Source of the DNA: a virus
Lineage: Duplodnaviria > Caudoviricetes
Direction: 5' to 3' (one strand)
IMG/VR virus record: IMGVR_UViG_3300025401_000648
Length of the DNA: 64,000 nucleotides
Numbering within the stretch: position 1 is the first letter of the stretch; each line of letters starts with the position of its first letter. The position numbers and the translations under genes are program-made. Of this stretch, positions 2,521-60,913 are shown one piece after another. Under the pieces are notes generated by a model. That model searched no databases and was not told the origin of the DNA. It saw nothing but the letters and a program-made list of their open reading frames with translations.

Positions 2521-2895
2521 ATGAAACTAATGGAATTTTTCGGCAAGCCCGTCGATATCAACAAAGAAATGTCCAAGGATCGTGAAGATTCTAAAATAGG
2601 TGATGATTTATTCTGGTTCATTGTCGATCATGATCGACTACACAAGGATTTCTTTCATCCTATTGCTGTAAAAATTCACCGAGCACAAAAATCTAATAAA
2701 CTAGATAAAGAAGAAATTGTCAAAGATTTTATGCCCATGGTTATTAAAGGGTGTAAAGAGTTTTTTAGAAAACATAAAATGCTAGGCAACATTAAAGAAA
2801 CTTTCCCCAAAGAACTACGCAAAGATGTTTGCGAAAAACTATTTGATCATTATCGTGAAGATATTATCAAAGGCAAATATAAGATAGGAATTTAA
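2521..2895 (+). CDS. Hypothetical protein with capsid-targeting-like N-terminus (MKLMEFF)
   Basis: 124-aa ORF directly upstream of 2897; N-terminus resembles those of neighbours. Confidence 0.7.
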   Translation: MKLMEFFGKPVDINKEMSKDREDSKIGDDLFWFIVDHDRLHKDFFHPIAVKIHRAQKSNKLDKEEIVKDFMPMVIKGCKEFFRKHKMLGNIKETFPKELRKDVCEKLFDHYREDIIKGKYKIGI

Positions 2896-2896
2896 T

Positions 2897-5800
2897 ATGT
2901 TTCTAAGAGATATTTTTAAACGTATAGTTGTTGAAGGTGGCAATTTAGAATTACCTAATCCTCAAAACGCCAACGAACCACATCGTGCTGATGAAATAGA
3001 TCTACAGGTTCACAACCGTAGTTTTATAGTTCCAATATTAGATAAACTATTAAAAGACATCAACAATTCATTTAAGGCCAAATATAAAACTCCTATTTGG
3101 AGTCAAGACCTTTTGACCAGCAAACAATTTTTAGGCGGCAGTAGTTTACATTTCTTCAATACCAAAGGCATCAACGATCAACAATTTACTGCCAAGAAGC
3201 CCAAGGTAGGTGATATCGATACGCAGTGCAATAAAGAACAAGAAGAACAAATAAAAGAATTTTTAACTGTTTATACAAATAAACAAATTGGTGACACAAC
3301 GTTATTGGGATTTAGCGCAGGCAATGAACAATTCAATGCCCTGTTTCAATTCCAAGATCCGCCAATGAAAATACAGGTTGATTTTGAGTTTGGCCGATAT
3401 AATCCAGAAACAAACACACCAGATGAGTGGTTTAGATTCAGTCATAATAGTGAATGGAATGATATTGATGCCGGTATCAAGGGAGTGTTCCACAAATATC
3501 TTTATAGATCTTTAAGTGGTATATCGTCACGTAGAGCATATATTGCCAAACTGGCAGGACGTGGTAAAGCACGTGCCATACAAATTTCTGATGAACCAGA
3601 AGAAGTTAACTTAATCTCTTTTGCTGTGGCAAGCAAACAAGGTGGTGGTGTTAGTCAAAAATATAAACCCTATATTGATCCAAATACCAATAAGCCCATG
3701 GTGAAAGATAATTTACCAGTATTGGAGCCAGTAGCGCCTGCTGATAGACAATATGAACAAAGATTAAGCAAACAATTTGAAATGTTTTTTGGCCGTGTTC
3801 CTACTCCTGAAGATTCTAAACTACAACAAAGTTTTTTAGGCACATTAGACTTAATTAACAGATATGTTGAAAATTCTAAAAAGGCAGGAATAGTTGAAGA
3901 TTTCTTAGATATTTGTTTTGAACAAGGTAGTCAAATGATTACCCGAGACGATCCTAAACGTGATGCTGAAACTAAATTTATAGCCATAGATGTAATGCTA
4001 GAAAAATTAGGCATGCGATCCATGCGCCCCAAGGCCATTGAAATGGCCAAGGCCTATGAGCAAGATTATAATGATGTCGAAGCATTTAAGAAAGCCAATC
4101 CAGGTGTATCACAACCACGTGCCGCGATGAAAAAAATGGCTGTTCGAGAAGCTGAAGGTGATGCCCCGGCAGTTAAAGCACAACTACGCAAAGGTATGCC
4201 TCACCTTCGTGATCTAAAACCTGCGGACTTTTTAGATCTAATCGATGAGTTACATGATGGCAATGGTAATTTTAAATTACAAAATATTCCATTAAATGTC
4301 AAAATAGATGGATTTGGTGGACGCTTTGGTAAAAACGCAGATGGTAAACCATTCATGGGCACTAGCCGTACTGAGCCACGTTACGAGCCAGGTTTTCTAA
4401 AGTATCATCAAGAAAAAGGCACAACTGATCCAGAAATATTGGGTCGCGCTCAATCTTTTGACAAGTTGTTTGATGAAATGATGAACGCTATTAAAGTAGT
4501 TGATAGTACTTTAGGTCCAGATTTTCTAAAAGATAGACAGGTCACCTGCGAGGTATTATTTTTACCATTTGCCACACAAACTGAAGAAGGCAAATTAAAA
4601 TTTGTAGGTATTGAATATGATCAACTGCCAAAAGGTGTTAATCTTGTGCTGGTACCTTTTCGCATTGTAGAAGGTAGTACAGGTGAGGACATACCTGACA
4701 GTGACAGAGTTATTCAAGAATTATCAAACTTAGGACAGAATGGTAGTGTGGCATTCATGAGCAACAGGCTGGTACAAAAACAAGGCTTGGATGTTACAGA
4801 AATTATCAACCCGTTAGACAACATTGAAGAATTAAAACAAATTGTCAGCGGAGCCGCAGGTAAACGAGACAAAGCCAGTTTACAACTGCGTAGAGAAGTT
4901 GAGGAAAAGTTAAAGCCTATACAAATAGCATTAGAAAAAGCCATTGATGAAGATCCTAACATTATTGGCAAAGACATGTTGGGGCAAGACTACGAGGGTA
5001 TTGTTATCAATAGTCGATTGGGACCAATCAAGGTCACAAGTCAACGCCAAAAAGATATTATCACCGCTAAGAATGCCGCTAAGAAAAATGCCCGTACAGA
5101 ACGCCCACGCAGTGAAAACAAAACAGCAGTAGTGGCCATTGGCAGTTTTGTTGGACATAAAGGCCATCAACAATTATTTGATTACACAATTAAGAAGGCC
5201 AAGGAATTGAATGGCGACCCGTATTTGTTTATGGGCAATGCTGTAGGAAAAGATGATCCAATTCCAGTCGCTGATAAAATTAAAACTTGGCAAATGCTGT
5301 ATCCACAATATGCCAACAATATCAGTGCTGTAACAATGGAAGGTGGAACACTCATGCAGAAAATCAAACATGAGTTAATCAATCCATTGCCAGGTAAACT
5401 GCCACGCTATGATAACATTATTATTATGGTTGGGGAAGATCAGGCCAAGATGCCAATAGCAGGCGCATTGATGAAAGCAGTTAATAAATTTCCAGGCTAT
5501 GAGAATGTCAAAGTTCATTTAGAAGTTACCCCGCGTGGAACTGGAATGAGTTTTACCAAATTACGTGATATTTTAAAAACAGGTAATCCTGATCAAGCAT
5601 TTCAATTATGGAATGATGCGTTTAACGGTGGTCAGTTTGGTGCCAAACAACTACCACCAGAATGGATACGACACCTAATGGATGTAACAAGGAACGGTAT
5701 GGGAATCAAAGAGCCACAAAAACAACAACCTGTTGCTGAACAGAGGTTGTTTAATTCGTTGTTGCGCCCACAAGTAAAGAAAGAAAAGCAAGGTGTGGCG

Positions 5801-6298
5801 GAGACTACAGGAGATAAACCGTTTGATAACATGATGAAAACTATTAAAACGGGTACAAAAAAACAAGCCACCGCAGATAGACGAGAACAAAAAAAGCAAG
5901 ATCAAGAAAGAACAAGAGCCGCTATTAGCAATATGTTTGGCAATAGTATGGATCACTTAAAAAATTTAAAAATTAAAGAGCGAAGTGTGGCAGAAAAGAT
6001 GATGCCTGCCGGTAATTTTTCTAGCACACCCAAAAACAAACTAGGCCCAGCAGGACAGCTAAAGGGCAAGATGAAGCGTCCAGCACGGGCAGGTGATCTA
6101 GTGGGTGGTGCTGAAGAAAGTTATGACGGCGGTAGTTATACCTCACACAAACCAGGATTTGGTGGACAAGGTAGATACACTGATTCTGTGAGAACACAGT
6201 TTAATATTGGTGAAAACAAACTAGTGCCTATTGGTGAAGATCTAGAATTAAAAATGGCCGAAGCTGTGTTAAAACTGATGGAAAATACCTTAAAATGA
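2897..6298 (+). CDS. Multidomain nucleotidyltransferase: Pol-beta-like NTase + ATP-dependent ligase-like adenylation domain + HIGH (cytidylyltransferase-like) domain
   Basis: GGSS...GDID...QVD (Pol-beta type); KIDG, TCEVLF, VPFRIV, YEGIVI, PIKV (ligase motifs I, III, IIIa, IV, V); GHKGH and SFTKLR (HIGH superfamily); basic tail with QGVAE. Confidence 0.65.
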   Translation: MFLRDIFKRIVVEGGNLELPNPQNANEPHRADEIDLQVHNRSFIVPILDKLLKDINNSFKAKYKTPIWSQDLLTSKQFLGGSSLHFFNTKGINDQQFTAKKPKVGDIDTQCNKEQEEQIKEFLTVYTNKQIGDTTLLGFSAGNEQFNALFQFQDPPMKIQVDFEFGRYNPETNTPDEWFRFSHNSEWNDIDAGIKGVFHKYLYRSLSGISSRRAYIAKLAGRGKARAIQISDEPEEVNLISFAVASKQGGGVSQKYKPYIDPNTNKPMVKDNLPVLEPVAPADRQYEQRLSKQFEMFFGRVPTPEDSKLQQSFLGTLDLINRYVENSKKAGIVEDFLDICFEQGSQMITRDDPKRDAETKFIAIDVMLEKLGMRSMRPKAIEMAKAYEQDYNDVEAFKKANPGVSQPRAAMKKMAVREAEGDAPAVKAQLRKGMPHLRDLKPADFLDLIDELHDGNGNFKLQNIPLNVKIDGFGGRFGKNADGKPFMGTSRTEPRYEPGFLKYHQEKGTTDPEILGRAQSFDKLFDEMMNAIKVVDSTLGPDFLKDRQVTCEVLFLPFATQTEEGKLKFVGIEYDQLPKGVNLVLVPFRIVEGSTGEDIPDSDRVIQELSNLGQNGSVAFMSNRLVQKQGLDVTEIINPLDNIEELKQIVSGAAGKRDKASLQLRREVEEKLKPIQIALEKAIDEDPNIIGKDMLGQDYEGIVINSRLGPIKVTSQRQKDIITAKNAAKKNARTERPRSENKTAVVAIGSFVGHKGHQQLFDYTIKKAKELNGDPYLFMGNAVGKDDPIPVADKIKTWQMLYPQYANNISAVTMEGGTLMQKIKHELINPLPGKLPRYDNIIIMVGEDQAKMPIAGALMKAVNKFPGYENVKVHLEVTPRGTGMSFTKLRDILKTGNPDQAFQLWNDAFNGGQFGAKQLPPEWIRHLMDVTRNGMGIKEPQKQQPVAEQRLFNSLLRPQVKKEKQGVAETTGDKPFDNMMKTIKTGTKKQATADRREQKKQDQERTRAAISNMFGNSMDHLKNLKIKERSVAEKMMPAGNFSSTPKNKLGPAGQLKGKMKRPARAGDLVGGAEESYDGGSYTSHKPGFGGQGRYTDSVRTQFNIGENKLVPIGEDLELKMAEAVLKLMENTLK

Positions 6299-6606
6299 AG
6301 CAATTTAGGATTACTTCAGAAAATAGCCAACCCATAGACAGTAGTGAAGATTGTGTACTACCTCCAGACGACTATGCTCACGAGCTAAAGCGTTTACAGT
6401 ATTTGGGCGGTTTAGGTGGAGAGGCAAGGCTTCAAGAATACCGTGCTCATCAAAATGCGGTAAATAAAGGAAGCAATGTCAGTGTTACAGGTACTGAAAA
6501 GGCTCAACTGATGAAGCAGAATAATATTAAACCAGGAACTCCAGAATGGTTTCAACTTTGGTTTAGTAGACCGTATCTAACACATGAGAAACCAGTAGGA
6601 AAATAA
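6295..6606 (+). CDS. Hypothetical protein
   Basis: 103-aa ORF, ATGA-coupled to upstream gene; PGTPEWFQLWF motif. Confidence 0.75.
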   Translation: MKQFRITSENSQPIDSSEDCVLPPDDYAHELKRLQYLGGLGGEARLQEYRAHQNAVNKGSNVSVTGTEKAQLMKQNNIKPGTPEWFQLWFSRPYLTHEKPVGK

Positions 6607-6607
6607 T

Positions 6608-6973
6608 ATGAGAGCAAAAGAATTTATCCGTGAATCATTAGGGTCACAAAACATGGCCAAGGATCAAGTGACTAGTATTCCTAATGCTCACTATTTTCCT
6701 GATTTGGATAACAGTAGTGGTTATGAAGCATATCGTTGGGGTGTGGCTTTGGCAGGTATGCCAGATTACCCAATGCCGCAAGATGGCACTACAGGACAAA
6801 AATTAGTTACAATTGGCTATACTGAAGCAGATGATTTAATTATAGACAGCACCAGTAAATTATTTGGTGCTAGAAAAGTAAGATTGACCCCACGCGGTAG
6901 TACAGAGTTGAAAGACACAAACAAAACTAGCCCCGTGGCTAATTGGATGGGAAAAGAGAAAAACAATGACTAA
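6608..6973 (+). CDS. Putative internal head protein (MRAKEFIRE leader)
   Basis: N-terminus resembles the T4 capsid-targeting sequence MKTYQEFIAE. Confidence 0.65.
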   Translation: MRAKEFIRESLGSQNMAKDQVTSIPNAHYFPDLDNSSGYEAYRWGVALAGMPDYPMPQDGTTGQKLVTIGYTEADDLIIDSTSKLFGARKVRLTPRGSTELKDTNKTSPVANWMGKEKNND

Positions 6974-9287
6974 CGAATTTAAAAAAATCTCCAAGGGTAC
7001 AGAAACCCGTTATATTCTAGAAAGCGAAACTGCTGGTGCCACTGGCAGTGGATCTATTGCCACTGTGCCAGGTGGTATGGGTGGTGTTCGTAAACGTGGC
7101 GGAAACTTGTTAGCTCAGGAAGGCAATAAAGAAAAAGTTCCTGCTACTAAGCCAAGAAACTTTGTGGCCAAGAATGCCAAGATGGGCGGTGCTGGCGCAC
7201 ACAAGGATAAGAAGAAGGCTGAGAAGCAGGGTGATGTAAAACATCGTAAACCATTTGCCGAACAAGGTGTGGCGGAAGGCTCCGGAGGCAATTGGTATAT
7301 TCGGGTCAACGGTAAAATCCTCAATGACACCAAGTATAAGCCAGAGATTTTCTCATCTGAGGACGAGGCAAGAAGTCACGCAATGAAACTTGCTGATAAG
7401 AAACGCATACCGTTGTCACAAATTAAATTAACAAAAAGTTGGATGGATGCTCCTGAGCAAGGTGTGGCGGAAGGCAGTATATCTGACTTATTGAATAAAG
7501 ATTCAGCATCACCAAAATTCAATGACCATCCAGCACCACTCAAAACAAAACATTCTGGTAGCATTCCAACGCCCTACGAAAAAGGTAGATTAGATGCTCA
7601 TAGAAAAAAGCCATATAACAATATCCACAAAGACAAGCAAGATGCGGAAGATTATAAAACTGGTTATGGGCACGTTAAATCTAAGCAAGGTGTGGCGGAA
7701 GGCTCGGGAAAGAATGTAGTCAAGTCAGTCAAGGTAGGAAACTTTAGACACGATTTGGTCAATACTGGAATGGGTTGGCAGGTTCGTATCTATAACGGTG
7801 ATGAACTTTATGATACTGGGTTGAGCAAGAACTCTGAAGAAAAAGGTTTAGCCGCATTGGATAACTCAGTGGCATACACTAAAAAGCAACTAAACATTAA
7901 AGAGCAAGGTGTGGCGGAAGGCGCTCCAGAACTATTGAAGAAAGAAATGCCACTACATCGTCATGCTGAAAAATTATTAGCACAAAATGGCGTCAGTAAA
8001 GATGATCCAGATTATCGCCATCATCTTGGTAACACGATAAAACATCTTCGTCAGTTTGGTAATATTGATTTGATTAACAAGAGTGACGAGCAAGGTGTGG
8101 CGGAAGAGTGGAGTCAAAAATATAAATCTAGTATCAACTGCTCACATCCAAAAGGTTTCTCACAAAAGGCTCACTGTGCAGGCAAGAAAAAGCACACGGA
8201 AAGTATGATGACAATGGAAGCAGTATGTCCTGATTGTGGTATGTGCCAAACACACGGCAACTTGAATGAGATCAAGAAAGGTGCTAAAGACAGTAATGGA
8301 TTTACCAAATGCTGGCCTGGACATCATGCGGCAGGTACTAAGAAAGGTAAGAACGGTGGACAAGTTCGTAACTGTGTGCCTAATGAAAGTTTGTCAGAAG
8401 GTTGGGGTATGGGCGGTTATGAAACTGCCAAGGTACAGCCAATTGAACCAGGCAAAGGCATTGATAAAGAAATAGGTGAAAATCCAGATTGGTACAATGA
8501 CGAAGCAAATAGCATGAGCACTGCTCAACTAAAGAGTTTGGTCAAACATGCTACTAAGCTCCGCCATGCTGTCAAACAAATGCAAGCACAAGGCGATACA
8601 TTAGAACCTTGGCAACAAAGCAAAGTTACCAAAGCCGCAGATTATTTAGATGCTGTATTCAATGCTGTAGATGACGAACATGACATGGACGAAGAGGAAG
8701 GAGCAGGCGGAATGTTAAGCCCTATATCAGAAGCTCCAATTGATATGGATCCGTCCGAACCAATGAATCCAATGATATACGGACATCAAGGTGTTAATCC
8801 TGCTAAACTAAAAGATCGAATGATGAGGGCCGCTGGTCAATTAAAAGATCTAGCACAAAGAGCAGAATCAGGAAGTGCGTTAGGCTGGGAAAGTATCACT
8901 CGTCACTTTGAAGAATTGGCAATGAACATTGAACAAATACGTCATGCTTTAGAAGAGCTGGCTAACAAACGTAAGAAAGGTGGCATTGGTTCAAGAGGTA
9001 TTGATCCACACATTGGCGAAAGTGATCATCCTGATGAAAAAGAAGATAAAGCACTTATTCGTAAAATGGTCAAGGCACAAGCATTGAAACAAGAAGACAG
9101 TTATATGGCTGAGCTACAGGCCAAACTAGCTGAAAAGATTCCCAAGAATGCTCCTGTAGATGTTTATATCAAAGATTTTGAAAAATCCAATGCTCCACAG
9201 TTCCGTGGTAAGACAAAGGAAAAACGTCGTCAAATGGCCATTGCCGCCAGTTACGGTGCTAAAAATCCTAGCAAGAAGAAAAAATGA
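6966..9287 (+). CDS. Modular Lys-rich putative internal head polyprotein with five QGVAE(G/E) repeats
   Basis: 773 aa; unrelated 56-70-aa modules separated by QGVAEG; further [ILV]-x-E sites (LNE, LSE, ISE, IGE) between later modules; CPDCGMCQTH putative metal site. Confidence 0.7.
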   Translation: MTNEFKKISKGTETRYILESETAGATGSGSIATVPGGMGGVRKRGGNLLAQEGNKEKVPATKPRNFVAKNAKMGGAGAHKDKKKAEKQGDVKHRKPFAEQGVAEGSGGNWYIRVNGKILNDTKYKPEIFSSEDEARSHAMKLADKKRIPLSQIKLTKSWMDAPEQGVAEGSISDLLNKDSASPKFNDHPAPLKTKHSGSIPTPYEKGRLDAHRKKPYNNIHKDKQDAEDYKTGYGHVKSKQGVAEGSGKNVVKSVKVGNFRHDLVNTGMGWQVRIYNGDELYDTGLSKNSEEKGLAALDNSVAYTKKQLNIKEQGVAEGAPELLKKEMPLHRHAEKLLAQNGVSKDDPDYRHHLGNTIKHLRQFGNIDLINKSDEQGVAEEWSQKYKSSINCSHPKGFSQKAHCAGKKKHTESMMTMEAVCPDCGMCQTHGNLNEIKKGAKDSNGFTKCWPGHHAAGTKKGKNGGQVRNCVPNESLSEGWGMGGYETAKVQPIEPGKGIDKEIGENPDWYNDEANSMSTAQLKSLVKHATKLRHAVKQMQAQGDTLEPWQQSKVTKAADYLDAVFNAVDDEHDMDEEEGAGGMLSPISEAPIDMDPSEPMNPMIYGHQGVNPAKLKDRMMRAAGQLKDLAQRAESGSALGWESITRHFEELAMNIEQIRHALEELANKRKKGGIGSRGIDPHIGESDHPDEKEDKALIRKMVKAQALKQEDSYMAELQAKLAEKIPKNAPVDVYIKDFEKSNAPQFRGKTKEKRRQMAIAASYGAKNPSKKKK

Positions 9288-9568
9288 AAATTGTAGAGTT
9301 GATCAATGAGAGTGATGACAATTGGGATGAGTTATCTCAAAAAGTATCAAAAAAATCAGCTGATCAAGCAATCAAACATCTTCAAAAGGATTTAAAAGAT
9401 CCTATTGGATATGAAGCAGTGGACCATATGATGACCAGTATAGCTAAAAAATACAATATGACTCCTCATGACCTACATTTATTATTTGTAGAAAAAGTTG
9501 GCACTACACCAGATGTTTGGATTAGAAAAATCGGTCCAAGTTTAGACAAGTGGATTAACAAAAAATGA
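9284..9568 (+). CDS. Putative internal head protein (MKIVELINE leader)
   Basis: ATGA-coupled; paralogous to the N-terminal domain of the 9565 protein. Confidence 0.7.
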   Translation: MKIVELINESDDNWDELSQKVSKKSADQAIKHLQKDLKDPIGYEAVDHMMTSIAKKYNMTPHDLHLLFVEKVGTTPDVWIRKIGPSLDKWINKK

Positions 9569-10002
9569 AAATCCGTGAACTAGTTGAGGCTATGAAGCCG
9601 GAACATGTGTCAGGTAAGGAAAAACCTGGTGCCGTAGATGCATTAGAAAAAAGATTATTGGCTGCTAAAAAATCTGGTACAAAATTCAACTACGACGTCA
9701 TTGATCAAATGATGCAAAAAATCTGTAGAGAATTTAATCTCACAGGCGATAAACTTCATAATGATTTTGTAAAGAAACATAATCTTGTTCCAGACAATTG
9801 GATTAAGAAAGATCTTAACGTAGAAGAAAACTTTGCTGATGGTAAGCATCCAGGACGTAAAGGATTAGCCAAACGCAGTGGTGTAAATACAAAAGCCAGT
9901 GTTAGTAGCCTACGCAAAACTGCCAAACACAGCACAGGTGAAAAACAACGTATGGCACATTGGTTGGCCAATATGAAAGCAGGGAGAGCCAAGAAAAAAT
10001 GA
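9565..10002 (+). CDS. Putative internal head protein (MKIRELVE leader), two modules
   Basis: ATGA-coupled; shares DxMMxxI...LHxxFVxK...PDxWIxK with the 9284 protein; second basic module after NVEE. Confidence 0.7.
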   Translation: MKIRELVEAMKPEHVSGKEKPGAVDALEKRLLAAKKSGTKFNYDVIDQMMQKICREFNLTGDKLHNDFVKKHNLVPDNWIKKDLNVEENFADGKHPGRKGLAKRSGVNTKASVSSLRKTAKHSTGEKQRMAHWLANMKAGRAKKK

Positions 10003-10418
10003 GAGCATCAGAATTCATAATTGAAACAGCCGCTTGGCAAAAATCATCAGGTAAAAATAAAAATGGTGGTTTAAACAAAAAAGGTGTGGCCAGTTATCGT
10101 AGAGAGCATCCTGGATCAAAATTACAAACTGCTGTGACCACTAAGCCCAGCAAGTTGAAAAAAGGTAGCAAAGCCAGTAAACGTCGAGCAAGTTTTTGTG
10201 CTCGTATGAAAGGTATGAAAAAACATCGTACAGGAGCCTCCACCAAGAGAGATCCAAACAGTCGCATAAACAAAAGTCTACGCAAGTGGCATTGTGAAAG
10301 TGTTGAGCAATTATACGGCGTGTTACAAGCATTGAGAGAAGCAGCCAATCCAGCACAGCAGGCTGCTATTGCTATCAATATGAAGAAGAATCATAAAAAG
10401 CCTAAGAATACAAAATAA
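9999..10418 (+). CDS. Putative very basic internal head protein (MRASEFIIE leader)
   Basis: Start moved from 9960 to ATG 9999 (ATGA overlap with upstream stop); K/R-rich. Confidence 0.7.
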   Translation: MRASEFIIETAAWQKSSGKNKNGGLNKKGVASYRREHPGSKLQTAVTTKPSKLKKGSKASKRRASFCARMKGMKKHRTGASTKRDPNSRINKSLRKWHCESVEQLYGVLQALREAANPAQQAAIAINMKKNHKKPKNTK

Positions 10419-10422
10419 AAAT

Positions 10423-10752
10423 ATGTCAAATAACTATAATTGGATTATTTCAAAATTAGATTGTATTCCCAATGCCAATGGTTTGGAAAATGTGATTCAA
10501 TCAATACATTGGAGATTTGGTGGTACTGACGGCACTAACTATGCCGATGTATTTGGGGAAGTTATACTGGATAGTCCGGATCCTGATTCATTCATATTAT
10601 ATAAAGATTTGAGTGAAGAGCAAATTATAAACTGGATCACCGCATCATTAGGTGAAGAAGCAATAATATCTTTTAAGAAAACAATAGATGCCAAAATTTC
10701 CGCAATAGTCAACCCACCCGTGGTAAATCCTGCGTTTCCTTGGGTTATTTAA
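10423..10752 (+). CDS. Hypothetical protein
   Basis: 109-aa ORF at the end of the late operon. Confidence 0.7.
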   Translation: MSNNYNWIISKLDCIPNANGLENVIQSIHWRFGGTDGTNYADVFGEVILDSPDPDSFILYKDLSEEQIINWITASLGEEAIISFKKTIDAKISAIVNPPVVNPAFPWVI

Positions 10753-10778
10753 ATTAATATCTAAAAATTCCAAAACAC

Positions 10779-10807
10779 TTGATCTCCTGACTTCACTAGC
10801 GTATAGT
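10779..10807 (+). promoter_or_regulatory. Sigma70-type early promoter
   Basis: TTGATC-N17-TATAGT upstream of SD AAGGAG and ATG 10830. Confidence 0.65.
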
Positions 10808-10829
10808 AAGTGAATAAGGAGATTTTTTT

Positions 10830-11102
10830 ATGAGTAAAGCGTTCGGCGCCCCAGAACAGGCAAAGATTAAACAGATTGTAGCAGAAGGTATGACTGTGAT
10901 GCAGGAAATTCAAGACCTTACTGAGGGGTTGAATGATACAATTAAAGCAGTAGCCGAAGAATTGGAAGTCAAACCCAGTGTTATTAAGCGGGCCATTAAA
11001 ATTGCCCAAAAAGATCAATGGGATCAAGTATTCCGTGAATTTGATGATTTGGAAACTATCGTTGATATTGCCGGACACGCAAATCGTCGACAAGACGTTT
11101 GA
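10830..11102 (+). CDS. Small dsDNA-binding protein, T4 DsbA/GapR-like
   Basis: 90-aa helical protein; IKAVAEELEVKPSVIKRAIKIAQK resembles the T4 DsbA pattern. Confidence 0.55.
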   Translation: MSKAFGAPEQAKIKQIVAEGMTVMQEIQDLTEGLNDTIKAVAEELEVKPSVIKRAIKIAQKDQWDQVFREFDDLETIVDIAGHANRRQDV

Positions 11103-11134
11103 TAAAAGTACTTGATATTAATTAACCAATTTAC

Positions 11135-11163
11135 TTGATCTATCTTACACAGATCTGTAATAT
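11135..11163 (+). promoter_or_regulatory. Possible sigma70-type promoter
   Basis: TTGATC-N17-TAATAT; same -35 as the 10779 promoter. Confidence 0.4.
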
Positions 11164-11208
11164 AACTAATAACTGATGTATATCAGCATACAACAAAAGG
11201 AAATAAAG

Positions 11209-11481
11209 ATGAAAACAATTAGTCAAGAAACAAAAACATACAAGCTATTGACCGCATTAAAGAGCGGCGAAAAGTTTACAGCATCACAAGCTGAAAAGCG
11301 TTTTGGTATCAAGAACATCAGCGCAGAAGCAAGTCGTCTTCGTCAAGCTGGACACGCTATCTATGCTCGTAGCCGTAAAGCTGGCAACGGTGTTAATGTA
11401 ACTGAGTATCACTTGGATCGTCCAACCCGCAAGATGGTTGCTTTGGCATACAAGGCACAAAGCCTAGGCATTACACTGTAA
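11209..11481 (+). CDS. Winged-helix/HTH DNA-binding protein
   Basis: Start moved to 11209 (SD AAGGA); LLTALKSGEKFTASQAEKRFGIKNISAEASRLRQAG has an HTH pattern. Confidence 0.6.
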   Translation: MKTISQETKTYKLLTALKSGEKFTASQAEKRFGIKNISAEASRLRQAGHAIYARSRKAGNGVNVTEYHLDRPTRKMVALAYKAQSLGITL

Positions 11482-11501
11482 TTTGAGCTTGCTCAGTAAT
11501 C

Positions 11502-11523
11502 AACCCGCTTAGGCGGGTTTTTT
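11502..11523 (+). terminator. Rho-independent terminator between convergent genes
   Basis: AACCCGC-TTAG-GCGGGTT followed by a T run. Confidence 0.85.
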
Positions 11524-12583
11524 ATTGACTTTTGTAGTCTCGGTATCGTTGTCCGGACACTTCGCCTGAGAATAATTTTTTAACATATTCCAGACCTTTG
11601 GTCAATGCGTCTCTATCTTTGACAGCGCGGGCTTGACTGGCATCTGTACTAGCCTTGTCACGTTTGGGCGCAGTGATAGCATGTTGCGATTTTTCTACAT
11701 AGTGATTGGCAAATTGATTAATAAAGTCATCGGCAGAACTGAATCGTTCCAAATCACCCTTACCAAACATTCCATTTAATTCACAGCTACGAGCAAACCC
11801 CTTAACACCATTAACCAAACGTTCTACATTAACATTCATTGTGTCAACACCAGGATTGGCCTTTAGTAGTGGATCAATCTTGGGATTTTCTATTCCAAGT
11901 TCTTCTGCCTCATGTAGGAATATGTCTAATACCCAGCGTTTGATATCTTGCCCTACTGTGTGTAGGTTGTAATTCTTAAGCGTCTTGCCATAATTAACTT
12001 TTTTTCCATTTACAGTTTTGTATTGGATGCCCTTGTGCTGCAGGTTAACTGGAATCAATTCGCTCATTGTGGCAAAGATATTACCGTTTAGTAAACCTTT
12101 TAATCCATGTTCTCCTGTGGCACGATAACGGCCCCATTCGGCAGTCTTTTCTGGATGCGGCATAATATCTACTTGTACCTTACTACCATCACCCAATATG
12201 AACATGGGCTGTGCTCCTCGACTTTCAGCTTTATCAATATAGGATAAATTTGAATCTTGAATAAATTTATTGATTAATGTGCCCCAGCGACCCTGAACTT
12301 GCCCACTGGTCATATCATCATATTCTGGTAAATCTGGAATAATAACCTGTAGATCCATGTCACCATATATGGTGTTTTCTGGATCATCGAGTTCATGATA
12401 AGCGGCGGATCCTGTGGGATGACCAACTTTCATAGGTCCAAGCCCCTGTTGTTTTAACCAAGGATTGAAATCTTTAAGGAAATTATCTACTGCAACAATT
12501 CCCTGTTTTACCACTTTGGCTTTGATGCCAGGATTATCTCCGGTGGTCCACCCGCCTTCAACAATTAATTCTCTAATTTTCAT
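11522..12583 (-). CDS. Pol-beta-superfamily nucleotidyltransferase with capsid-targeting-like leader
   Basis: Start at ATG 12583 (MKIRELIVEGG); TGS...GDMD...QVD motifs; paralogous to the N-domain of the 2897 protein. Confidence 0.65.
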   Translation of the reverse strand: MKIRELIVEGGWTTGDNPGIKAKVVKQGIVAVDNFLKDFNPWLKQQGLGPMKVGHPTGSAAYHELDDPENTIYGDMDLQVIIPDLPEYDDMTSGQVQGRWGTLINKFIQDSNLSYIDKAESRGAQPMFILGDGSKVQVDIMPHPEKTAEWGRYRATGEHGLKGLLNGNIFATMSELIPVNLQHKGIQYKTVNGKKVNYGKTLKNYNLHTVGQDIKRWVLDIFLHEAEELGIENPKIDPLLKANPGVDTMNVNVERLVNGVKGFARSCELNGMFGKGDLERFSSADDFINQFANHYVEKSQHAITAPKRDKASTDASQARAVKDRDALTKGLEYVKKLFSGEVSGQRYRDYKSQ

Positions 12584-12590
12584 AGTAAAG

Positions 12591-12597
12591 TATTTAT
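12591..12597 (-). promoter_or_regulatory. T4-like late promoter ATAAATA
   Basis: 7 nt upstream of ATG 12583 on the minus strand. Confidence 0.6.
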
Positions 12598-12606
12598 TCA
12601 AAACAG

Positions 12607-12947: not shown

Positions 12948-12997
12948 GCGAGCCATAAATCGCATCATGGTATTTGAGAGCCGTAAATCTCAAGGAG
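12948..12997 (+). promoter_or_regulatory. Tandem hairpins with GCCRTAAA loops abutting the DNA polymerase SD (candidate translational operator)
   Basis: GCGA-GCCATAAA-TCGC (12948-12963) and TTGAGA-GCCGTAAA-TCTCAA (12974-12993), then GGAG. Confidence 0.55.
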
Positions 12998-13006
12998 AAA
13001 AATAAT

Positions 13007-15676
13007 ATGAGTTATGTTGATGCCATTTGGGATCGCGAAAAAGACATTGTCAAAGTCATTGAGCGTGATCCAAAACAGGGTAGACTCTATCAAGAGTACA
13101 ATGCCCGCTATCTATTTTATTATCCAGACCAACGAGGAAAATTCAAAAGCATCTTTGGAGAAAACTTATCCAAAGTAACTGCTCGTAGCTGGAAAGAATT
13201 CATTAAAGAACAAAAAATCCATTCTTCTCATAAACTATATGAGAGCGATATCAATCCTGTATTCCGTTGTTTAGAAGAAAACTATCTTGGCAAAGATGCT
13301 CCAAAATTAAATGTAGCATTTTTTGATATTGAGGTGGACTTTGATCCAGAACGTGGCTACGCAAGTCCAGACGATGCGTTTATGCCAATTACTGCGATTG
13401 CTGTCCACCTACAATGGATGGATACTCTAGTATGCCTTGCTGTTCCTCCAAAGACTTTAACCATGGAACAAGCACAAGATCAAGTTAAAGAATTTCCCAA
13501 CACTATACTGTTTGAAACAGAATACGAAATGTTGGATACATTCTTAAATCTAATTGAAGATGCTGATGTGCTAAGTGGATGGAACAGTGAAGGGTTTGAT
13601 ATTCCCTATACTGTTAATCGTGTTACAAAAGTTCTAAGTAAAGAAGATACCCGTAGATTTTGTCTTTGGGGAGCCATGCCAAAGAAACGTGAATTTGAAA
13701 AATATGGAAAAACTGCTGTTACCTATGACCTTGTTGGTCGTGTTCACCTTGATAGTCTCGAGTTGTACAGAAAATATACCTATGAAGAACGCCACACATA
13801 TCGACTGGATGCAATTGGAGAGATGGAAATAGGCGAAAGCAAGACTGTTTACGAAGGTACGTTGGACCAGTTATACAATAATGATTTCCGTAAATTTATT
13901 GAATATAATAGACAAGACTGTGCCTTGCTTGATAAGTTGGATAAAAAGTTAAAATTCATTGACCTTGCTAATACTGTTGCTCACGAAAATACTGTGTTAC
14001 TACAAACTACAATGGGTGCTGTGGCTGTTACAGAACAGGCTATTGTAAATGAAGCACATCACAGAGGTATGATGGTACCAAGTCGCCCCAAACGAGATGA
14101 TACCGTAAGTAATCAGGCGGCAGGTGCGTATGTTGCTTATCCAAAAAAAGGCATCCATGACTACATTGGATCAATGGATATTAACAGTTTGTACCCGTCT
14201 GTGATTCGTGCGCTGAACATGGGTCCAGAAACGATTGTGGGTCAGTTACGCCAAGATTATACTAAAGAAGAAATTGAAAACAAAATGGCCAAGAAAGAAA
14301 GTTTCGCTGGCGCATGGGAAGGTAAGTTTGGCAGTAATGAATATGAATTTGTTATGAACCGAGATCGAAGTCATGATATTATCATTGATTGGGAGAATGG
14401 CGAAACCACTATTATGAGTGGTGCTCAAATTTATGAACTTATCTTTGAAAGTAATAATCCATGGATGCTAAGTGCCAATGGTACTATCTTTACCTATGAA
14501 AAAGAAGGTATCATTCCTGGTTTACTAAAACGTTGGTATAGTGAACGTAAAGAAATGCAGGCCAAGCTCAAAGAAGCAATTAAAGCGGAGAATAAAATTG
14601 AAGAAGAATACTGGGACAAAAGACAACTGGTTAAAAAAATTAACCTCAATAGCCTATATGGTGCTATTCTTAACGCTGGTTGTAGGTTCTTTGATAATCG
14701 TATTGGACAATCCACAACTCTTTCCGGACGTGGTATCGCCCGCCATATGGCCGCAAAGATAAATGAAGTTATCACTGGAGAGTACAACCATATTGGTAAA
14801 AGCATTATCTATGGTGATACTGACTCTGCCTACTTTAGTGCTTATTCATCTTTAAAGAACGAAATTGCCAAAGGTGAAATTCCTTGGAACAAGGACACAG
14901 TGGTTCAACTATATGATACCATTGCTGAAGAAGTAAATTCAACATTCCCAGATTTCATGCTAGAAGCACATCACTGTCCTCGCAGCCGTGGCGATGTTAT
15001 CCGTGCTGGTCGTGAAATTGTTGCTATCAAAGGCCTGTTTATTACCAAGAAGCGTTATGCCGTACTGTATTATGACAAGGAAGGCAAACGCAGTGACGTA
15101 GATGGCAAGCCAGGTAAGATCAAGGCCATGGGCTTGGATTTGAAACGCAGTGACACTCCTGAATTTATGCAGAAGTTTTTGGAAGAAGTTCTTACCAAAG
15201 TACTCAATGGTAGTGAAGAAAAAGAAATTCTAGAGATGATCAGTGAATTCCGTACAGAATTTAAAGCCCGACCAGGTTGGGAGAAAGGAAGTCCAAAACG
15301 TGCCAACAACATTACAGAATATCAAGAAAAAGAGAAGAAATTTGGCAAGGCTAATATGCCTGGTCATGTTAGAGCAAGTATTAATTGGAATACGCTCAAA
15401 AGAATGAATGGTGACAAATACAGTCAGCAAATTGTTGATGGTATGAAAGTTATCGTTTGTAAACTAAAGGGTAACCCCTTGGGATATACATCAGTAGCAT
15501 ATCCTGTGGACGAACTACGGTTGCCTAAATGGTTTCAAGAACTTCCGTTTGATCATGAAGAAATGGAAGCTACCATTATTAACAATAAGATTGAAAACCT
15601 TATTGGCGTATTAGAATGGGACTTGAGCAGTACTACTGAGACTAATACGTTTGGCAACTTGTTTTCGTTTGATTAA
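13007..15676 (+). CDS. gp43: Family B DNA polymerase (T4 gp43-like)
   Basis: Exonuclease FFDIE, WNSEGFD, YNRQD; polymerase DINSLYPS, KINLNSLYG, YGDTDS, KKRY; start at ATG 13007 after AAGGAG. Confidence 0.97.
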   Translation: MSYVDAIWDREKDIVKVIERDPKQGRLYQEYNARYLFYYPDQRGKFKSIFGENLSKVTARSWKEFIKEQKIHSSHKLYESDINPVFRCLEENYLGKDAPKLNVAFFDIEVDFDPERGYASPDDAFMPITAIAVHLQWMDTLVCLAVPPKTLTMEQAQDQVKEFPNTILFETEYEMLDTFLNLIEDADVLSGWNSEGFDIPYTVNRVTKVLSKEDTRRFCLWGAMPKKREFEKYGKTAVTYDLVGRVHLDSLELYRKYTYEERHTYRLDAIGEMEIGESKTVYEGTLDQLYNNDFRKFIEYNRQDCALLDKLDKKLKFIDLANTVAHENTVLLQTTMGAVAVTEQAIVNEAHHRGMMVPSRPKRDDTVSNQAAGAYVAYPKKGIHDYIGSMDINSLYPSVIRALNMGPETIVGQLRQDYTKEEIENKMAKKESFAGAWEGKFGSNEYEFVMNRDRSHDIIIDWENGETTIMSGAQIYELIFESNNPWMLSANGTIFTYEKEGIIPGLLKRWYSERKEMQAKLKEAIKAENKIEEEYWDKRQLVKKINLNSLYGAILNAGCRFFDNRIGQSTTLSGRGIARHMAAKINEVITGEYNHIGKSIIYGDTDSAYFSAYSSLKNEIAKGEIPWNKDTVVQLYDTIAEEVNSTFPDFMLEAHHCPRSRGDVIRAGREIVAIKGLFITKKRYAVLYYDKEGKRSDVDGKPGKIKAMGLDLKRSDTPEFMQKFLEEVLTKVLNGSEEKEILEMISEFRTEFKARPGWEKGSPKRANNITEYQEKEKKFGKANMPGHVRASINWNTLKRMNGDKYSQQIVDGMKVIVCKLKGNPLGYTSVAYPVDELRLPKWFQELPFDHEEMEATIINNKIENLIGVLEWDLSSTTETNTFGNLFSFD

Positions 15677-41465: not shown

Positions 41466-44400
41466 TATTGTTCTAATCCTAATAGTGTTAATGTTACATT
41501 AACTGCTGACGAACTTCCAGAGTTATTTGTAACTGCCAGATAGACTGTACTATTTGTTATAGTATCATTATTAAATCCAACAACTCCTGGGGTAATTAAT
41601 TGTGTTAACGATCCAGAAGTTGTAATAACATCTGCTATCACTCCAGATCCTGCTGTAGGATCAGTACTTTGATTTCTAGAACTGTCATTGGATAAACTAG
41701 TTGCGTCAGTATAGATTCTAACCCATGCTGGCTGATCAGTTACAACTTTTGACAACACATAAGATTTGTATCCTAATACGATAGTTGTAGCAGTAGTTCC
41801 TGCCGCTAAAACGCTGGTTGCTGTTGTAACTGTTACTCTAGTACCTGCTCCTGCTGATCCAGAATAACCTACTGGTCCAACACTACCAGCATAGCCTATT
41901 GGACCACTGACTGTGCTTGCTGATCCAGTATAACCTGTTGCTCCAGCGCTGCCAGCGTAGCCTAAGCCACTTGATCCAGTATAACCTGTAGTCCCAATGC
42001 TTCCAGTGTATCCACCTGGGTCACCTTTGCTACCTGTAAATCCAATAGAAGCATAAGCACCCTGAGATCCAGAATAACCACGTGGTCCTTGTACCGTACT
42101 TGCTGATCCAGTATATCCACCAGCATCGCCTTTACTTCCAGCAAACCCCTGTGTACCAAAACTACCAGTAAATCCTGTTATACCTTGACTACCAGCATAA
42201 CCAACTGATCCCCAATAGCCAACGCTGCCAGCGTAACCTTGACTACCAGAATACCCCAATCCGCCAATTGATCCTGAATAGCCCTGTGGTCCAATACTTC
42301 CAGCATAGCCAGTACTGCCAGCATAGCCATTTTTGCCAACTACCCCGCTTAATATAAATTGCCAACTTGTAAATGTTCCAGATCCGTAGACTGAATAAAC
42401 TTGGGTAGTTACTGTTGTTCCAGTAATACTGGTAATGATACTTGAAATATAATTAGCAGGATTAACTACTCCGCCTGGAGAGGACAATAATACTATAGAT
42501 TGACTTGTGGTATACGCTGATAATGCAATGTTGGTAGCAGTAAAGCTGAATGTGGTTCCAGGAGAAACAAGAGCAATATTAGTTGCCGTACTTGTTGCTG
42601 TGGTAACAAGGAATCCTAATCCTATACTGCCAGTATATCCCACTGATCCAGAATATCCTTGGCTACCAGTAAAACCAGTAACGCCAAAGCTGCCAGTAAA
42701 ACCGGTAATGCCTTGGCTACCTGTGTAGCCAACACTTCCCCAATAACCAGCACTTCCCCAATAGCCAACGCTACCAGTGTAACCTTGACTACCAGTATAT
42801 CCACCTGGATTACCTTGAGCACCAACACTACCAGTATACCCGATTTGGCTTGCCGCACCAATTGACCCAGAGAATCCTCTACTACCCGTAAATCCATTAG
42901 GACCCTGTGGGCCACTTACGTTACTAGCAGAGCCAGTATAACCAACACTACCAGTATACCCTAAGCTACCGCTGTATCCCAATGGACCGCTTACGCTACT
43001 AGCGGATCCAGTATAACCTTGCGGACCTTGCGGACCAAAACTGCCTGTAAAGCCAGTTGATCCTGAATAGCCTGTTGGGCCAATTACATTACTAGCAGAT
43101 CCAGTATAACCTTGTGGGCCCACACTGCCAGTAAAACCAACTGATCCAGTATAGCCCAACGGTCCACTCACACTACTAGCAGACCCAGTAAAACCCTGTG
43201 GACCAATGCTACCTGTATAGCCCAAGCTACCAGCATATCCTTGACTACCAGCATATCCCTGTGGTCCTTGCGGGCCTACAGAACCAGTATATCCGCCAGC
43301 ATCACCTTTACTTCCACTAAACCCTTGGAAACCCTGTGGTCCAGATACAGTACTTGCTGATCCAGTATAGCCAATACTTCCGCTGTAGCCTAAACTACCT
43401 GTATAGCCCTGTGGTCCTTGAGCCCCAACCGAACCAGTATAACCTCCTGGTGGTCCTTGTGGGCCAGTTGGTCCAGGTACTTCACTGACACTACCTGTAA
43501 ATCCAGTTTTACCAATATTACCAACACTACCTGTGTATCCTCTAGGACCTTGCGGACCGCTTACATTACTGGCTGAACCAGTATAGCCGCCTGGAGGTCC
43601 TTGCGGGCCTGGAACAGAACTTGCTGATCCAGTAAAACCAATAGATCCAACACTGCCTGTATACCCTAAATTTCCAATACTACCACTGTAGCCAATACGA
43701 CCAACACTACCAGTATATCCGGAGGCACCTATACTGCCTGTATAACCACCCGGAGTTCCTGGAGCACCAGCACTGCCTGTATAGCCGCCTGGGTCACCTT
43801 TACTACCCGTGTAGCCAATTCCCACATTAGAAATGTTGATTACACCGTTCATGCTAGGCAAATTATTAGTTTGATATGCTAGAGTATCAGGAGCGTTCAT
43901 TGGCACACTAAATGTTACTGTACCAACCGTTGCTCCATTATTTGTTACTCCAGTAGTGTATGGGGCACTATTATTGTCAGTATAATGGTCAACTATGTAA
44001 AAACCATGACTTGGGCTATTAACAGTAAAATAATAAGTGAATCCACGGGCTAGATTAATAATGTTGGTATTAAGGCCATTGATTAAAAAACTGCCCAATC
44101 CACTATCTGTTATAGAAATATAAAGTCCTGCTAATTGCCCGGCACTACCAGTGTATCCTTTACTGCCAGTAAATCCAAAACTACCGTTATATCCAATAAC
44201 TCCTGCGCTACCAGCATATCCTGTACTGCCAGTATATCCCTTGCTACCAGCAAAACCATTTGATCCAGCACTACCAGCATACCCGGTGCTACCAAAATAA
44301 CCAATTGCCCCACTACTTCCAGTATATCCAACAGGACCTTGTGGTCCCACGCTTCCTGCAAATCCAACACTGGCACTGCCTGCGTACCCTTGAGATCCTG

Positions 44401-44528: not shown

Positions 44529-47500
44529 TTATAATCCTTCAATCGGGTTATTATTTTGATCTGTTAAGACAAATCCTGTTTCAGTTGTTATATCAGGATC
44601 TCCACCGCTGTAGTAGCTATTTGGCAATACAGCTGGTCGAGCTTGTATAAATTTAGCCTGTTCAGTAGTACTATCCAATAATGAAACGCCATTGTTCCAT
44701 AATGTGGTATCCGAGAATTCTTTCTTAATAATAACCAATTTAATGTTGTCCCCTACTCCTTGTAGTGTATTTAACGTAATTTGTTGACTGACTGGACTTA
44801 CAAAGGTCAAGGGCCAAGCTATGGTGGCTGCCTGAGCAAGTCCAAATCCCCATCCATTAAATAGACTGTTATGCCCTGCCGAAATAATGGGATACTTGGC
44901 GCCGTTAGCATCAATCAATGTCCATCCTGCAGCTATCTGCTGAGTGGAGGTGTTTTGAGACAACACCCACCCTGAACCATTAGGTGGTTGGGCACCAAGT
45001 ACATCTACTGCGATAGCCCCAACGGTTATCTGCGTAGCAGTGATACTGAACTCAGGCGGCAAATAGTTTAAACCAGTATAGACATACCCGTTTACAGCAT
45101 CGGCTGCTATTGAATTTGTATAAATCCAGACTTTGTTAGTAGATGTAACAATATATGCTGTGTTTATTACTGTAGTTGAAGGCAACAATGATTCTGTAGA
45201 AACAGATCCAGTAATTTTAAATGTTGGACTATCATATGATAAAGTTGTATCTTGATAATATGTACCAACTTTATTCAACTGATATCCGCCATAATAAACT
45301 TGTACTTGATCCATAGCTGGTATTCCTGAAGATAAAGTTATACCATCCCCAGTCGCCGTACTAGCAGTGGTCAAAATAGTATATGTGGCAGTTGTACTGG
45401 TTGTATATAATGTTTGTGTATAAATGCTTTCATTAAATGGTATTGTTTGACTTGGACTTTGATCAATAACTGTGGTATAAATGTCTGAATAAGTCTTAGG
45501 ACTTGTGCCCAATGTTGATCTACGCAACTGACTTAATACATTTCCAGTGATTGTAAAGAACTCAATGCGCTCACCAGCAATCATTACAACTCCTGGAATT
45601 TTCTTGGATGGTATAGCAGGAGTCAGCACACTAGTATCATTAACATGAATTTCAGTATCTGTTAAGTTTAACGGTTGAGTTAGGTATGTGGAATTTTTAG
45701 CAGATATACGTTTGAATGAAGTTCTATTGAATATATCATTAAAAATTCTGTAACCCAACACAGTGGATGCCAATGTGTGATTGGCAATATATGTTATCAC
45801 AATCGTATTAGCCACACCAATCAAATACTTGTCGCTGATTTGTATTGTAACTCCATCACTCAAAATTTGATAGTCTACATTATTAACTAGCGGCACTCCA
45901 TCTAACACCAACCACAAATAGTTTGTGTTTAAAGGAGGAGCAGTGATCTTAAATTGGTTGGATATTGTGCCCTTAAATCGTTCTGTTCTCAACAACATTC
46001 CATCTTGATCAGTGTATGTTATAACTCTAATAGTAGTTCCAAGTGTGGGACTTGACAATATTAAATTAGATCCTTCAATATTAAAATCGTATCCATCCCC
46101 CGGTTGTTGATACAAATCAACCACCGCAACCACATCACCGTCTGAAACACCACTATAGCTAATGGTTATTGTATTGACTAAATTGTCAACTATGAAATCA
46201 AATCCACCACTTAGTTTAATGCCGTTGACGTAGACTTCTACACTGTTATTGGCTATGGCATATACCCCAGTTGGTCTTGGTCTACTGTTATTAATTTTAA
46301 ATGTTAAATTACCGTTGGTCACTGTGTAATAACTTACATAAGGTCCTACCAATTGTCTTGAATTTTGTTGAACTATGACATTTGACACTGCTGGTCCAAT
46401 ATTTCCAGGAGCTGGATTTAACGCATAGGTATTTACGGCGCCATCTGTAATTGTAATGAATTGATCTGTTATTTCATTGAAATAGTTGTGAGCAGATGTA
46501 AAGAACCATGCCTGAATAGTATTTGTCCCTGGAGGTAAATTGTAAACGGTCACTGCCGCACGAGTATCAGCCCCGTCAACAACTGGCCCTAATACATAAC
46601 CATAACCTGTAGAAGTAGTTTGTAGGGACACTGATGATCCATTAACTGTGACAAATGCGCTGTTGATAGATCCAAATTCAAAATTACAATATACTTGAGC
46701 ATTAGATACATCTGTTACTGTAACAGAATTATATGCCACAACCCCAGCATCATTACCACTTCCGCCGCCTACACTGATAATTGTATATCCAATTATTGCA
46801 CTATAATTTACGTATACACTTAATTGACTGGTTGCCCAATCAATGCTAAATTGTCCAGGTGTTAAATTAGTAGATGTGGTATATGAGTATACTTGCTGGA
46901 ATCCGTCAGTGACCGTTATACTTGCTGTTGTAGTTGGTAAAATAGGCAAGGTAATTGTACCGGTAGTACCACCAACAATATTAAAATTTCCACTGACAAC
47001 TATTGGAGCACCTGACGGTGTTTTGGTATAAACATTAATCCCAAGACTATCACTCGACCCACCTGCTACCAATTCTTCCGGAGCATAGCTATCATCAGGA
47101 TTTAAAAAGCCACTACCAACTCTCGCAGTGCTGGTAGATCCGCCATCAATAATAATGTCACTTGGATTGACACCTAATGCGCCAGTTAGTATAGCCGCGT
47201 TTGTCCCAGTCCAAGTTCCGCCATCAATTGATGTATCAAGTAGGGCGGAATTAGAACCCACATTCCAAAATTCAATAACTGTTCCAGGTGGGATCGCCGA
47301 AGTTAATGTGCTACTAAATGTCACCACTGTGCCTGTGACTGCTGTCACTGTTACATCAGTTGAATAAAACACATTAGTAATTGTACTAATAATATTTGCG
47401 TATTGCCCAACTAATGTAGCCGATGCTGAGTACAATGAAATATTATTTGTTCCTGCAGTTGCTGTGGAGGTTGATGTAGTCTTGCTATAGTATTCAATGT

Positions 47501-60868: not shown

Positions 60869-60885
60869 ATTTTTTGCCTATACCG

Positions 60886-60892: not shown

Positions 60893-60913
60893 TGCGGCAA
60901 TTAACCACATATA

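Follow-up and report, generated by a model that had tools for sequence, protein, structure and literature searches.

A putative protease-site linker that may double as an in-frame recombination joint for polyprotein modules of a jumbo phage

The internal proteins of phage T4 (IPI, IPII, IPIII and Alt) make up a highly variable set of cargo in which the targeting and cleavage signal alone is conserved (PMC3012670). The first 10 residues of IPIII, MKTYQEFIAE, direct internal proteins to the prohead and are removed by gp21, which cuts after the Glu of a hydrophobic-x-Glu motif. Proteases of T4-type and giant phages also cut after Glu in short x-x-Glu motifs (PMC5694885). Here we describe a locus in a 64,000-nucleotide (nt) stretch of viral DNA, IMG/VR record IMGVR_UViG_3300025401_000648 (hereafter the window), in which a peptide of this kind, QGVAE|G, recurs inside open reading frames (ORFs) as an 18-nt DNA repeat. 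We call this repeat the joint, and the unrelated protein modules that it separates cassettes. On balance we favour a reading in which the joint is a protease-site linker that doubles as an in-frame microhomology recombination joint of polyprotein modules. The likeness to T4 lies in leaders of the MKTYQEFIAE type placed before diverse small cargo and in the hydrophobic-x-Glu rule. T4, however, provides one gene and its own leader for each cargo, whereas here many modules share one ORF with an internal site. Furthermore, the T4 capsid-targeting sequence has not been described as conserved at the DNA level, whereas the internal site is, and both its cleavage and the packaging of its products are putative.

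Shuffling mediated by short motifs is likewise documented in T4-type phages. Promoter-early stem-loop (PeSL) cassettes are short DNA motifs repeated in hyperplastic regions (Arbiol et al. 2010, PMC2839356; PMC4122927), and recombination between PeSLs inserts, deletes and replaces small genes, with nearby direct repeats able to release mini-circles (PMC2839356). The joint resembles PeSLs as a short repeated DNA motif that mediates shuffling in T4-type genomes. PeSLs, however, are regulatory sequences between genes, composed of a promoter and a terminator, and carry entire genes. At 15-18 nt the joint is much shorter, lies within ORFs, preserves the frame and moves protein modules. No intergenic promoter with a stem-loop terminator of the PeSL type was found at the joints, all of which are intra-ORF and in frame with random flanks. 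In the gp38 adhesins of T2/T6-type phages, hypervariable segments between conserved glycine-rich motifs are swapped among phages (Trojet et al. 2011, PMC3157838). These motifs, too, are conserved, in frame and delimit exchangeable segments, but they form the core of a single domain in which all segments are needed together, whereas joints separate autonomous, unrelated domains that also occur as single genes. Unlike the gp38 motifs, the joints are probably cut.

Integrons and shufflons offer a further comparison: their arrays consist of unrelated cassettes, each delimited by a repeated site, and these are gained, lost and rearranged. Shufflon repeats lie inside a coding region. In contrast to both systems, no integrase or Rci-type recombinase and no attC site was found here, the joints are direct, in-frame repeats, and each cassette is a protein module and not a gene. 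Full-text literature searched for the joint peptide and DNA motif held nothing about phages, and the literature on jumbo-phage polyproteins gave no description of such an arrangement. Capsid-targeted processing and motif-mediated shuffling are already known; the new element would be a single in-frame sequence uniting the cleavage-signal and shuffling roles.

Conservation of the joint and exchange of modules

The 18-mer CAAGGTGTGGCGGAAGGC, which encodes QGVAEG, is present exactly four times on the plus strand of the window, at 7263-7280, 7458-7475, 7686-7703 and 7905-7922 (joints 1 to 4), and matches at 16 of 18 positions at 8091-8108 (joint 5, QGVAE|E), where the sixth codon is part of the downstream module. 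These five copies lie in an ORF of 773 amino acids (aa) at 6966..9287. The 14-mer CAAGGTGTGGCGGA additionally occurs at 5789 in the neighbouring 1133-aa ORF at 2897..6298, giving one joint copy there (5789..5806, QGVAE|T), and neither strand of the window holds a further one. Each of the six copies keeps the reading frame; the peptide is QGVAEG in four of them, QGVAEE in one and QGVAET in one. Spacer lengths are 177, 210, 201 and 168 bp, each a multiple of 3, and the spacers have no significant mutual similarity as protein or DNA. Since none of 100 dinucleotide-preserving shuffles of the window gave any match to the 18-mer and the spacers are unrelated, chance and tandem duplication were ruled out as origins of the repeats. 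An earlier interpretation drawn from the DNA letters of the window (the sequence-only reading) had listed these positions and spacer lengths, which were reproduced, and the 14-mer count that it proposed, run within the window, returned only the same six sites.

The codons of the joint are more uniform than the peptide requires. Within the long ORFs of the window, GTG accounts for 15.5% of Val codons and GCG for 7.8% of Ala codons. With this codon usage, the probability that one QGVAEG uses precisely these six codons is 7 × 10−4, and that three further copies repeat the six codons of the first is approximately 3 × 10−10. A codon test without ascertainment bias used 47 loci retrieved by protein homology, with peptide seeds that exclude the joint. 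The core GGTGTGGCGGAA was present at 70 of 102 non-redundant xGVAEx sites in these loci, compared with 0.45% expected from local codon usage, and the joint-free seeds counter ascertainment bias as a cause of this result. Position-wise substitutions were counted in 395 distinct in-frame joints with up to three mismatches to the 18-mer. Changes at the silent third positions of core codons were seen in only 3-6% of them, no more commonly than at first or second positions. T8, G13 and A14 of the joint were almost never altered, which holds P3 hydrophobic and keeps Glu at P1. Information content over 300 distinct contexts drops to background beyond about −6 to +14 of the core, and the block shared by joints comprises about 15 nt, AAGGTGTGGCGGAAG, encoding (Q)GVAE. 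The exact core still flanks homologues of two cassettes, W3 and W4, at 46-52% aa identity. Overall, these data show a nucleotide constraint on the whole block superimposed on a peptide constraint on hydrophobic-x-Glu, in agreement with the sequence-only claim that silent sites are conserved beyond the needs of the peptide.

An exact-match scan of IMG/VR located the 18-mer in at least 120 viral contigs. It encodes QGVAEG in frame in every readable case, and the 45 nt on each side are unrelated between contigs. Near-complete genomes hold one to four copies of the core on a single strand, with multiple copies lying within a few kb except in G006 (span of ~32 kb), so the six copies of the window are at the high end. 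A library adapter or chimera artefact was rejected, as 395 of 404 contexts have an uninterrupted frame to either side and the motif stands at conserved module boundaries. A 596-Gb prokaryote collection yielded merely 56 matches to the 18-mer, mostly single copies in high-GC (guanine plus cytosine) actinomycete and other bacterial genomes together with a few contigs from lake metagenome-assembled genomes (MAGs); a bacterial or prophage origin was rejected on these matches. The 18-mer occurs once each in more than 10 Nonomuraea and several Micromonospora genomes (L173, L177, L178, L185 and others), presumably in one conserved high-GC gene unrelated to the phage joint. Contig L218 (CAILDT010000116.1, 8950 bp) from a lake 'Bacteroidetes' MAG carries three exact joints within 900 bp and is probably a phage contig binned into the MAG. 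The other lake MAG contigs, L183, L200 and L226, have one copy apiece.

Comparison with relatives shows that module exchange occurs at the joint. Between joints 1 and 5 lie the cassettes W1 (59 aa, 7281..7457), W2 (70 aa, basic and Pro-rich, 7476..7685), W3 (67 aa, 7704..7904) and W4 (56 aa, helical, 7923..8090). W3 is 94.5-98.5% identical at the nt level in at least eight different contexts, with an identity of 0.21-0.33, equivalent to random, in the 120 nt beyond either joint. W1, W2 and W4 behave like W3, and over all cassettes an identity of 92-100% inside compares with 0.21-0.35 in the 120 nt past the joints. W1 recurs in L083 at 97.7% nt identity with unrelated flanks, and W2 recurs in L147 at 100% identity, there preceded by another upstream module and by the variant joint EDMAEG. 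In L149, W4 is missing precisely between two joints, so that W3 runs straight into the module found after W4 in the window. The L150 homologue of gene 2897..6298 has the same leader fused directly to a cytidylyltransferase domain and carries W3 as a cassette. Orthologues of gene 6966..9287 retain the N-terminal module, the Cys-rich EWSQKYKSSINC module and the C-terminal tail, and the cassette sets and orders between these differ. Homology breaks exactly at the motif with different modules on either side, as in the conserved-motif-mediated modular shuffling of T4-type phages.

Similarly, a HMMER search of 1.84 billion cluster representatives returned 171 proteins of 45-1166 aa. Most of these match one cassette only, at an arbitrary position, and the alignment ends coincide with the cassette boundaries. 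The first codon of the joint travels with the upstream neighbour and the sixth codon with the downstream neighbour, and crossovers therefore fall inside the shared block of ~9-15 nt. Some ORFs terminate in an 'empty' joint (QGVAE-stop and QGVAEGKK-stop), a position at which cleavage would serve no obvious function. The gain, loss and shuffling of cassettes at the repeat, as proposed in the sequence-only reading, is borne out by the orthologue comparison, the loss of W4 in L149 and the breaks of identity at joints.

Candidate cleavage sites and the modules between them

The peptide encoded by the joint is a putative prohead-protease site that would be cut after its Glu. Leaders of ~10 residues ending in hydrophobic-x-Glu are present in neighbouring genes of the window (MRAKEFIRE, MKIVELINE, MKIRELVE and MRASEFIIE) and in stand-alone cassettes. 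In stand-alone W3 genes, the module begins directly after the leader Glu, as in MNKSIRDYITLVE|NKNIVKSV... and MKTFKEYLSE|KVVKSV.... W4 has the stand-alone forms P0078 and P0150, and a stand-alone W4 form reads MNKNIRDYINLIE...GVAE|GAPELL.... The conserved Cys-rich module that follows joint 5 (EWSQKYKSSINCSHPKGFSQKAHC...NCVPNE, 8106..8387) is a small stand-alone gene with a leader in T4-like cyanophages. Cyanophage Bellamy encodes it as the 51-aa gp122, MKSFKQFQE|SWSNKYKKSIDC... (SWSNKYKK...), and cyanophage S-SM2 has a two-module gene in which it comes second, after EEFRE|. N-termini composed of a leader plus a joint also exist (MRATEFIIEGVAE|G and MKTLRDYINLIESNEQGVAE|A). Overall, the comparison shows joint and leader as interchangeable ways of preceding a module.

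The hydrophobic-x-Glu rule is also followed at boundaries that depart from the joint sequence. Joint variants in database proteins (VSE, VTE, VVE and MAE) keep P3 and P1, and P2 varies. Two other modules have non-canonical boundaries, with Glu at P1 in 30 of 30 and 17 of 19 cases and a hydrophobic residue at P3 in 23 of 30 and 16 of 19, the latter compared with a 27% background (p = 2 × 10−8 and 3 × 10−7, respectively). Within the window, comparison with relatives locates a non-canonical boundary, ESLSEG, at 8385..8402, where hydrophobic-x-Glu is retained. The same boundary is a GVAE-type joint in relatives, NES-QGVAE-G in L079 and NE-GVAE-G or NES-VAE-G in L131-L133. A decayed joint, RSVAE|K (AGTGTGGCAGAA), lies at 5981..5998 in the neighbouring polyprotein gene, and the corresponding boundary in L150 is an intact EQGVAE|G. 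Peptidase_S77 was found in the joint-bearing relatives G004, G006, G008 and G009, and G007 (99% complete) had no scoring match. Gp23 was found in both S77-bearing relatives that were searched for it, and the capsid protein of relatives starts ...KEALLE|G.

Structure prediction was applied to the modules. In a single-sequence model of residues 79-425, W1, W3 and W4 were folded, and confidence was low at all five joints and throughout W2. W1 is predicted to form a small strand-plus-helix domain (pLDDT 65-87), and AlphaFold gave W3 a confident fold of a four-strand sheet plus a helix (pLDDT 92). The W3 model had no match in the PDB at E ≤ 0.001, the best being MmoD (E 0.03, TM 0.61). Pfam and PHROGs searches for module function returned families of unknown function only, and an Atlas search of the modules returned no named relative. 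A loose W-x-[IV]-R-[IV]-x-NG-x-x-L-x-D... pattern is common to W1 and W3, and in each the predicted fold runs from strands into a helix. The two may be very distant paralogues; BLASTP between them detected no significant similarity (E about 8). As for the protease site proposed in the sequence-only reading, the hydrophobic-x-Glu rule, the equivalence of leader and joint, S77 in relatives and the low model confidence at joints all support it by comparison, and it is from these that we infer cleavage.

Proposed mechanism and competing explanations

In the mechanism that we favour, gene 6966..9287 and the tail of gene 2897..6298 would encode polyproteins of small, independently folding modules. 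The prohead protease would cut the polyprotein after the Glu of each joint to free modules of 56-70 residues, probably inside the prohead, in a release resembling that of T4 internal proteins from their capsid-targeting leader. At the DNA level, the joint would constitute an in-frame microhomology common to all such genes of the phage group. Through recombination or a template switch, any two joints would then allow whole modules to be deleted, inserted or swapped with the frame kept, both within one genome and between co-infecting phages. The enzymology would be that of general phage recombination or replication, with no dedicated integrase. Joints would stay identical through frequent exchange, in which only intact joints keep participating, and a mutated joint would leave the exchange pool with its neighbours frozen as a fixed fusion. 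Two boundaries may be frozen joints of this kind, RSVAE (decayed, at 5981) and SLSE (non-canonical, at 8385), whose departure from the joint sequence the freezing would explain.

If this mechanism is correct, giant T4-related phages could assemble a toolkit of small proteins and quickly reshuffle it, with one short sequence serving both as the cutting signal that frees modules and as the in-frame splice point at which modules are pasted. It would explain the fast diversification of internal, ejected proteins in the arms race with host defences. Furthermore, in-frame GGTGTGGCGGAA would be a tag by which metagenomes could be mined for candidate cargo modules, in the hundreds, and the arrangement would be a natural rule for the design of T4-type vectors that package several cargoes.

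Several observations weigh against this mechanism. The case for cleavage and packaging is comparative throughout, and the window itself contains no protease or head genes. The N-terminus of the 773-aa protein (MTNEFKKIS..RYILE|S) is merely loosely capsid-targeting-like, and Black et al. in 1994 are said to have given Leu or Ile, not Val, as the canonical T4 P3 residue. On the DNA side, a shared stretch of 9-15 nt is little for homologous recombination to act on, yet cassettes that are nearly identical occur in many contexts. Exact joints also stand between anciently adjacent modules (W3'-W4' in L141), which turnover alone may not explain. The short homology and these exact joints leave room for an active sequence-specific mechanism or for direct nucleotide selection; direct selection on the nucleotides of the joint or on RNA is possible. 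Finally, metagenome assembly may mis-pair the two sides of a 237-bp repeat (a cassette with its two joints), and whole architectures are possibly chimeric, with each single junction staying supported despite such mis-pairing. Assembler k-mers typically exceed 18 nt, so the 18-nt repeat itself cannot cause mis-joins.

Among the alternatives, the one that survives best, which we nonetheless consider unlikely, treats the joint as a mere flexible inter-domain linker. The polyprotein would then be uncut, or cut by a non-head protease, and not packaged, and DNA identity would be a by-product of exchange. This explanation accommodates both the comparative nature of the case for cleavage and packaging and the start of the 773-aa protein, which is weakly capsid-targeting-like. 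A plain linker would account for the low model confidence at the joints equally well. A linker would, however, require neither a hydrophobic P3 and a P1 Glu that are nearly invariant beside a variable P2 and variable flanks, nor the hydrophobic-x-Glu rule at non-canonical boundaries, nor modules that alternate between being preceded by a joint and by a leader with their first residue unchanged.

It is distinctly unlikely that the joint is the recognition site of dedicated machinery, such as a nuclease, recombinase or template-switch signal, that actively moves in-frame cassettes as a protein-coding analogue of integrons or shufflons. A conserved block of only ~15 nt with sharp edges, cassettes 98% identical in at least eight contexts, which implies fast movement, exact joints that persist beside anciently diverged modules and the existence of empty terminal joints would all suit such machinery. 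Nevertheless, searches of five joint-bearing genomes, three of which are 97-100% complete, found no tyrosine recombinase (PF00589; control genomes were positive in 14/14 cases) and no serine recombinase or resolvase (PF00239). No inverted-repeat or attC-like structure was found either, and with random flanks over 300 contexts the conserved block of ~15-18 nt leaves no room for inverted arms. Moreover, crossovers at varying points inside the joint fit homology-driven exchange better than a fixed cut site. With no recombinase and no flanking structure, the comparison with integrons is therefore an analogy only, and the 'integron-like' label of the sequence-only reading does not hold beyond it. 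We regard as equally doubtful a protein-level integron without a known integrase, in which a sequence-specific activity or a programmed template switch would move ready-made effector modules among polyprotein genes and co-infecting giant phages, with the head protease releasing the modules for delivery with the DNA.

A role of the silent sites in mRNA function or translation, whether as a pause at the rare GTG-GCG for folding or co-translational cutting or as a binding site for a regulator or RNase, is highly improbable: both codons are indeed rare here, and the conserved sequence invariably lies in frame on the coding strand, but selection for rarity would permit others such as GTC (9.9%), yet one sequence dominates, the common codons GGT and GAA are equally fixed, and neither a conserved flanking structure nor a consistent downstream start codon was found. 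An internal ribosome-binding site plus start codon was rejected, as no consistent start codon follows the joint.

Neighbouring genes and the phage of origin

The modular polyprotein gene at 6966..9287 and its neighbours lie on the plus strand unless stated otherwise. Its conserved N-terminal module (MTNEFK...PRNFVAKNAKMGGAGAHKDKKK, 6966-7262) has a weak, sub-threshold Pfam match to DUF7230, and the four cassettes and the Cys-rich module are followed by further modules with non-canonical or decayed boundaries. The neighbouring polyprotein (2897..6298) comprises the leader MFLRDIFKRIVVEGG, a phrog_19290-matching domain, a cytidylyltransferase domain and C-terminal cassettes. A leader of the form MFLR(D/N)IF stands before the phrog_19290-matching domain in this gene and directly before the cytidylyltransferase in L150:4789-7428. 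Because this leader is ahead of different first domains in the two phages, enzyme-domain shuffling is suspected, and large enzyme domains, too, seem to be shuffled behind leaders.

Two stand-alone small genes flank the modular polyprotein gene, at 6608..6973 (MRAKEFIRE|S) and 9284..9568 (MKIVELINE|S), each with a capsid-targeting-like leader. A two-module gene with the leader MKIRELVE|A follows at 9565..10002, and its second module (ENFADGK...) is elsewhere stand-alone or fused. The gene at 9999..10418 (leader MRASEFIIE|T) encodes DUF6321, a module that is found inside polyproteins of L128 and L147. A further T4 capsid-targeting-like leader in the interval 2521-12601 is MKIRELIVEGG at 11522 on the minus strand; the leader at 2521 (MKLMEFFGK) fits less well. 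Adjacent genes are joined by ATGA overlaps at 6295/6298 and 9999/10002. The polyprotein operon is headed by a ClpB/ClpA-like double AAA+ ATPase at 17-1993 (AAA, AAA_2 and ClpB_D2-small), which is without a protease domain.

PHROG and Pfam matches place a T4 gp43-type DNA polymerase at 12974-15676 and, on the minus strand at 57422-63528, a baseplate wedge protein and a gp5-like hub; collagen-like tail fibres, an exonuclease and a thymidylate synthase are also encoded. The polymerase is 44-52% identical to its nearest relatives, from the jumbo myoviruses Sinorhizobium phage Phosso and Agrobacterium phage Atu_ph07 and the Rak2-like coliphages. Joint-bearing contigs reach 338-374 kb at an estimated completeness of 97-100%. 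From this polymerase kinship and these contig sizes, the window is assigned to an uncultured jumbo phage, a T4-related myovirus with T4-type core genes. The T4 late-promoter octamer TATAAATA is strongly avoided, with one copy in the window compared with 8.5 ± 3 expected from shuffles, and a late promoter near the joint locus was rejected, as that sole copy is at 31700. An ORF of 4296 aa at 44529-57419 on the minus strand lies between the baseplate wedge gene and a gene for a collagen-like tail fibre of 1025 aa. The GC content of the window is 38.3%, and a local peak at 42001-44000 (0.465 versus ~0.38, with strong negative GC skew) corresponds to the collagen-like repeats of the 1025-aa tail-fibre ORF.

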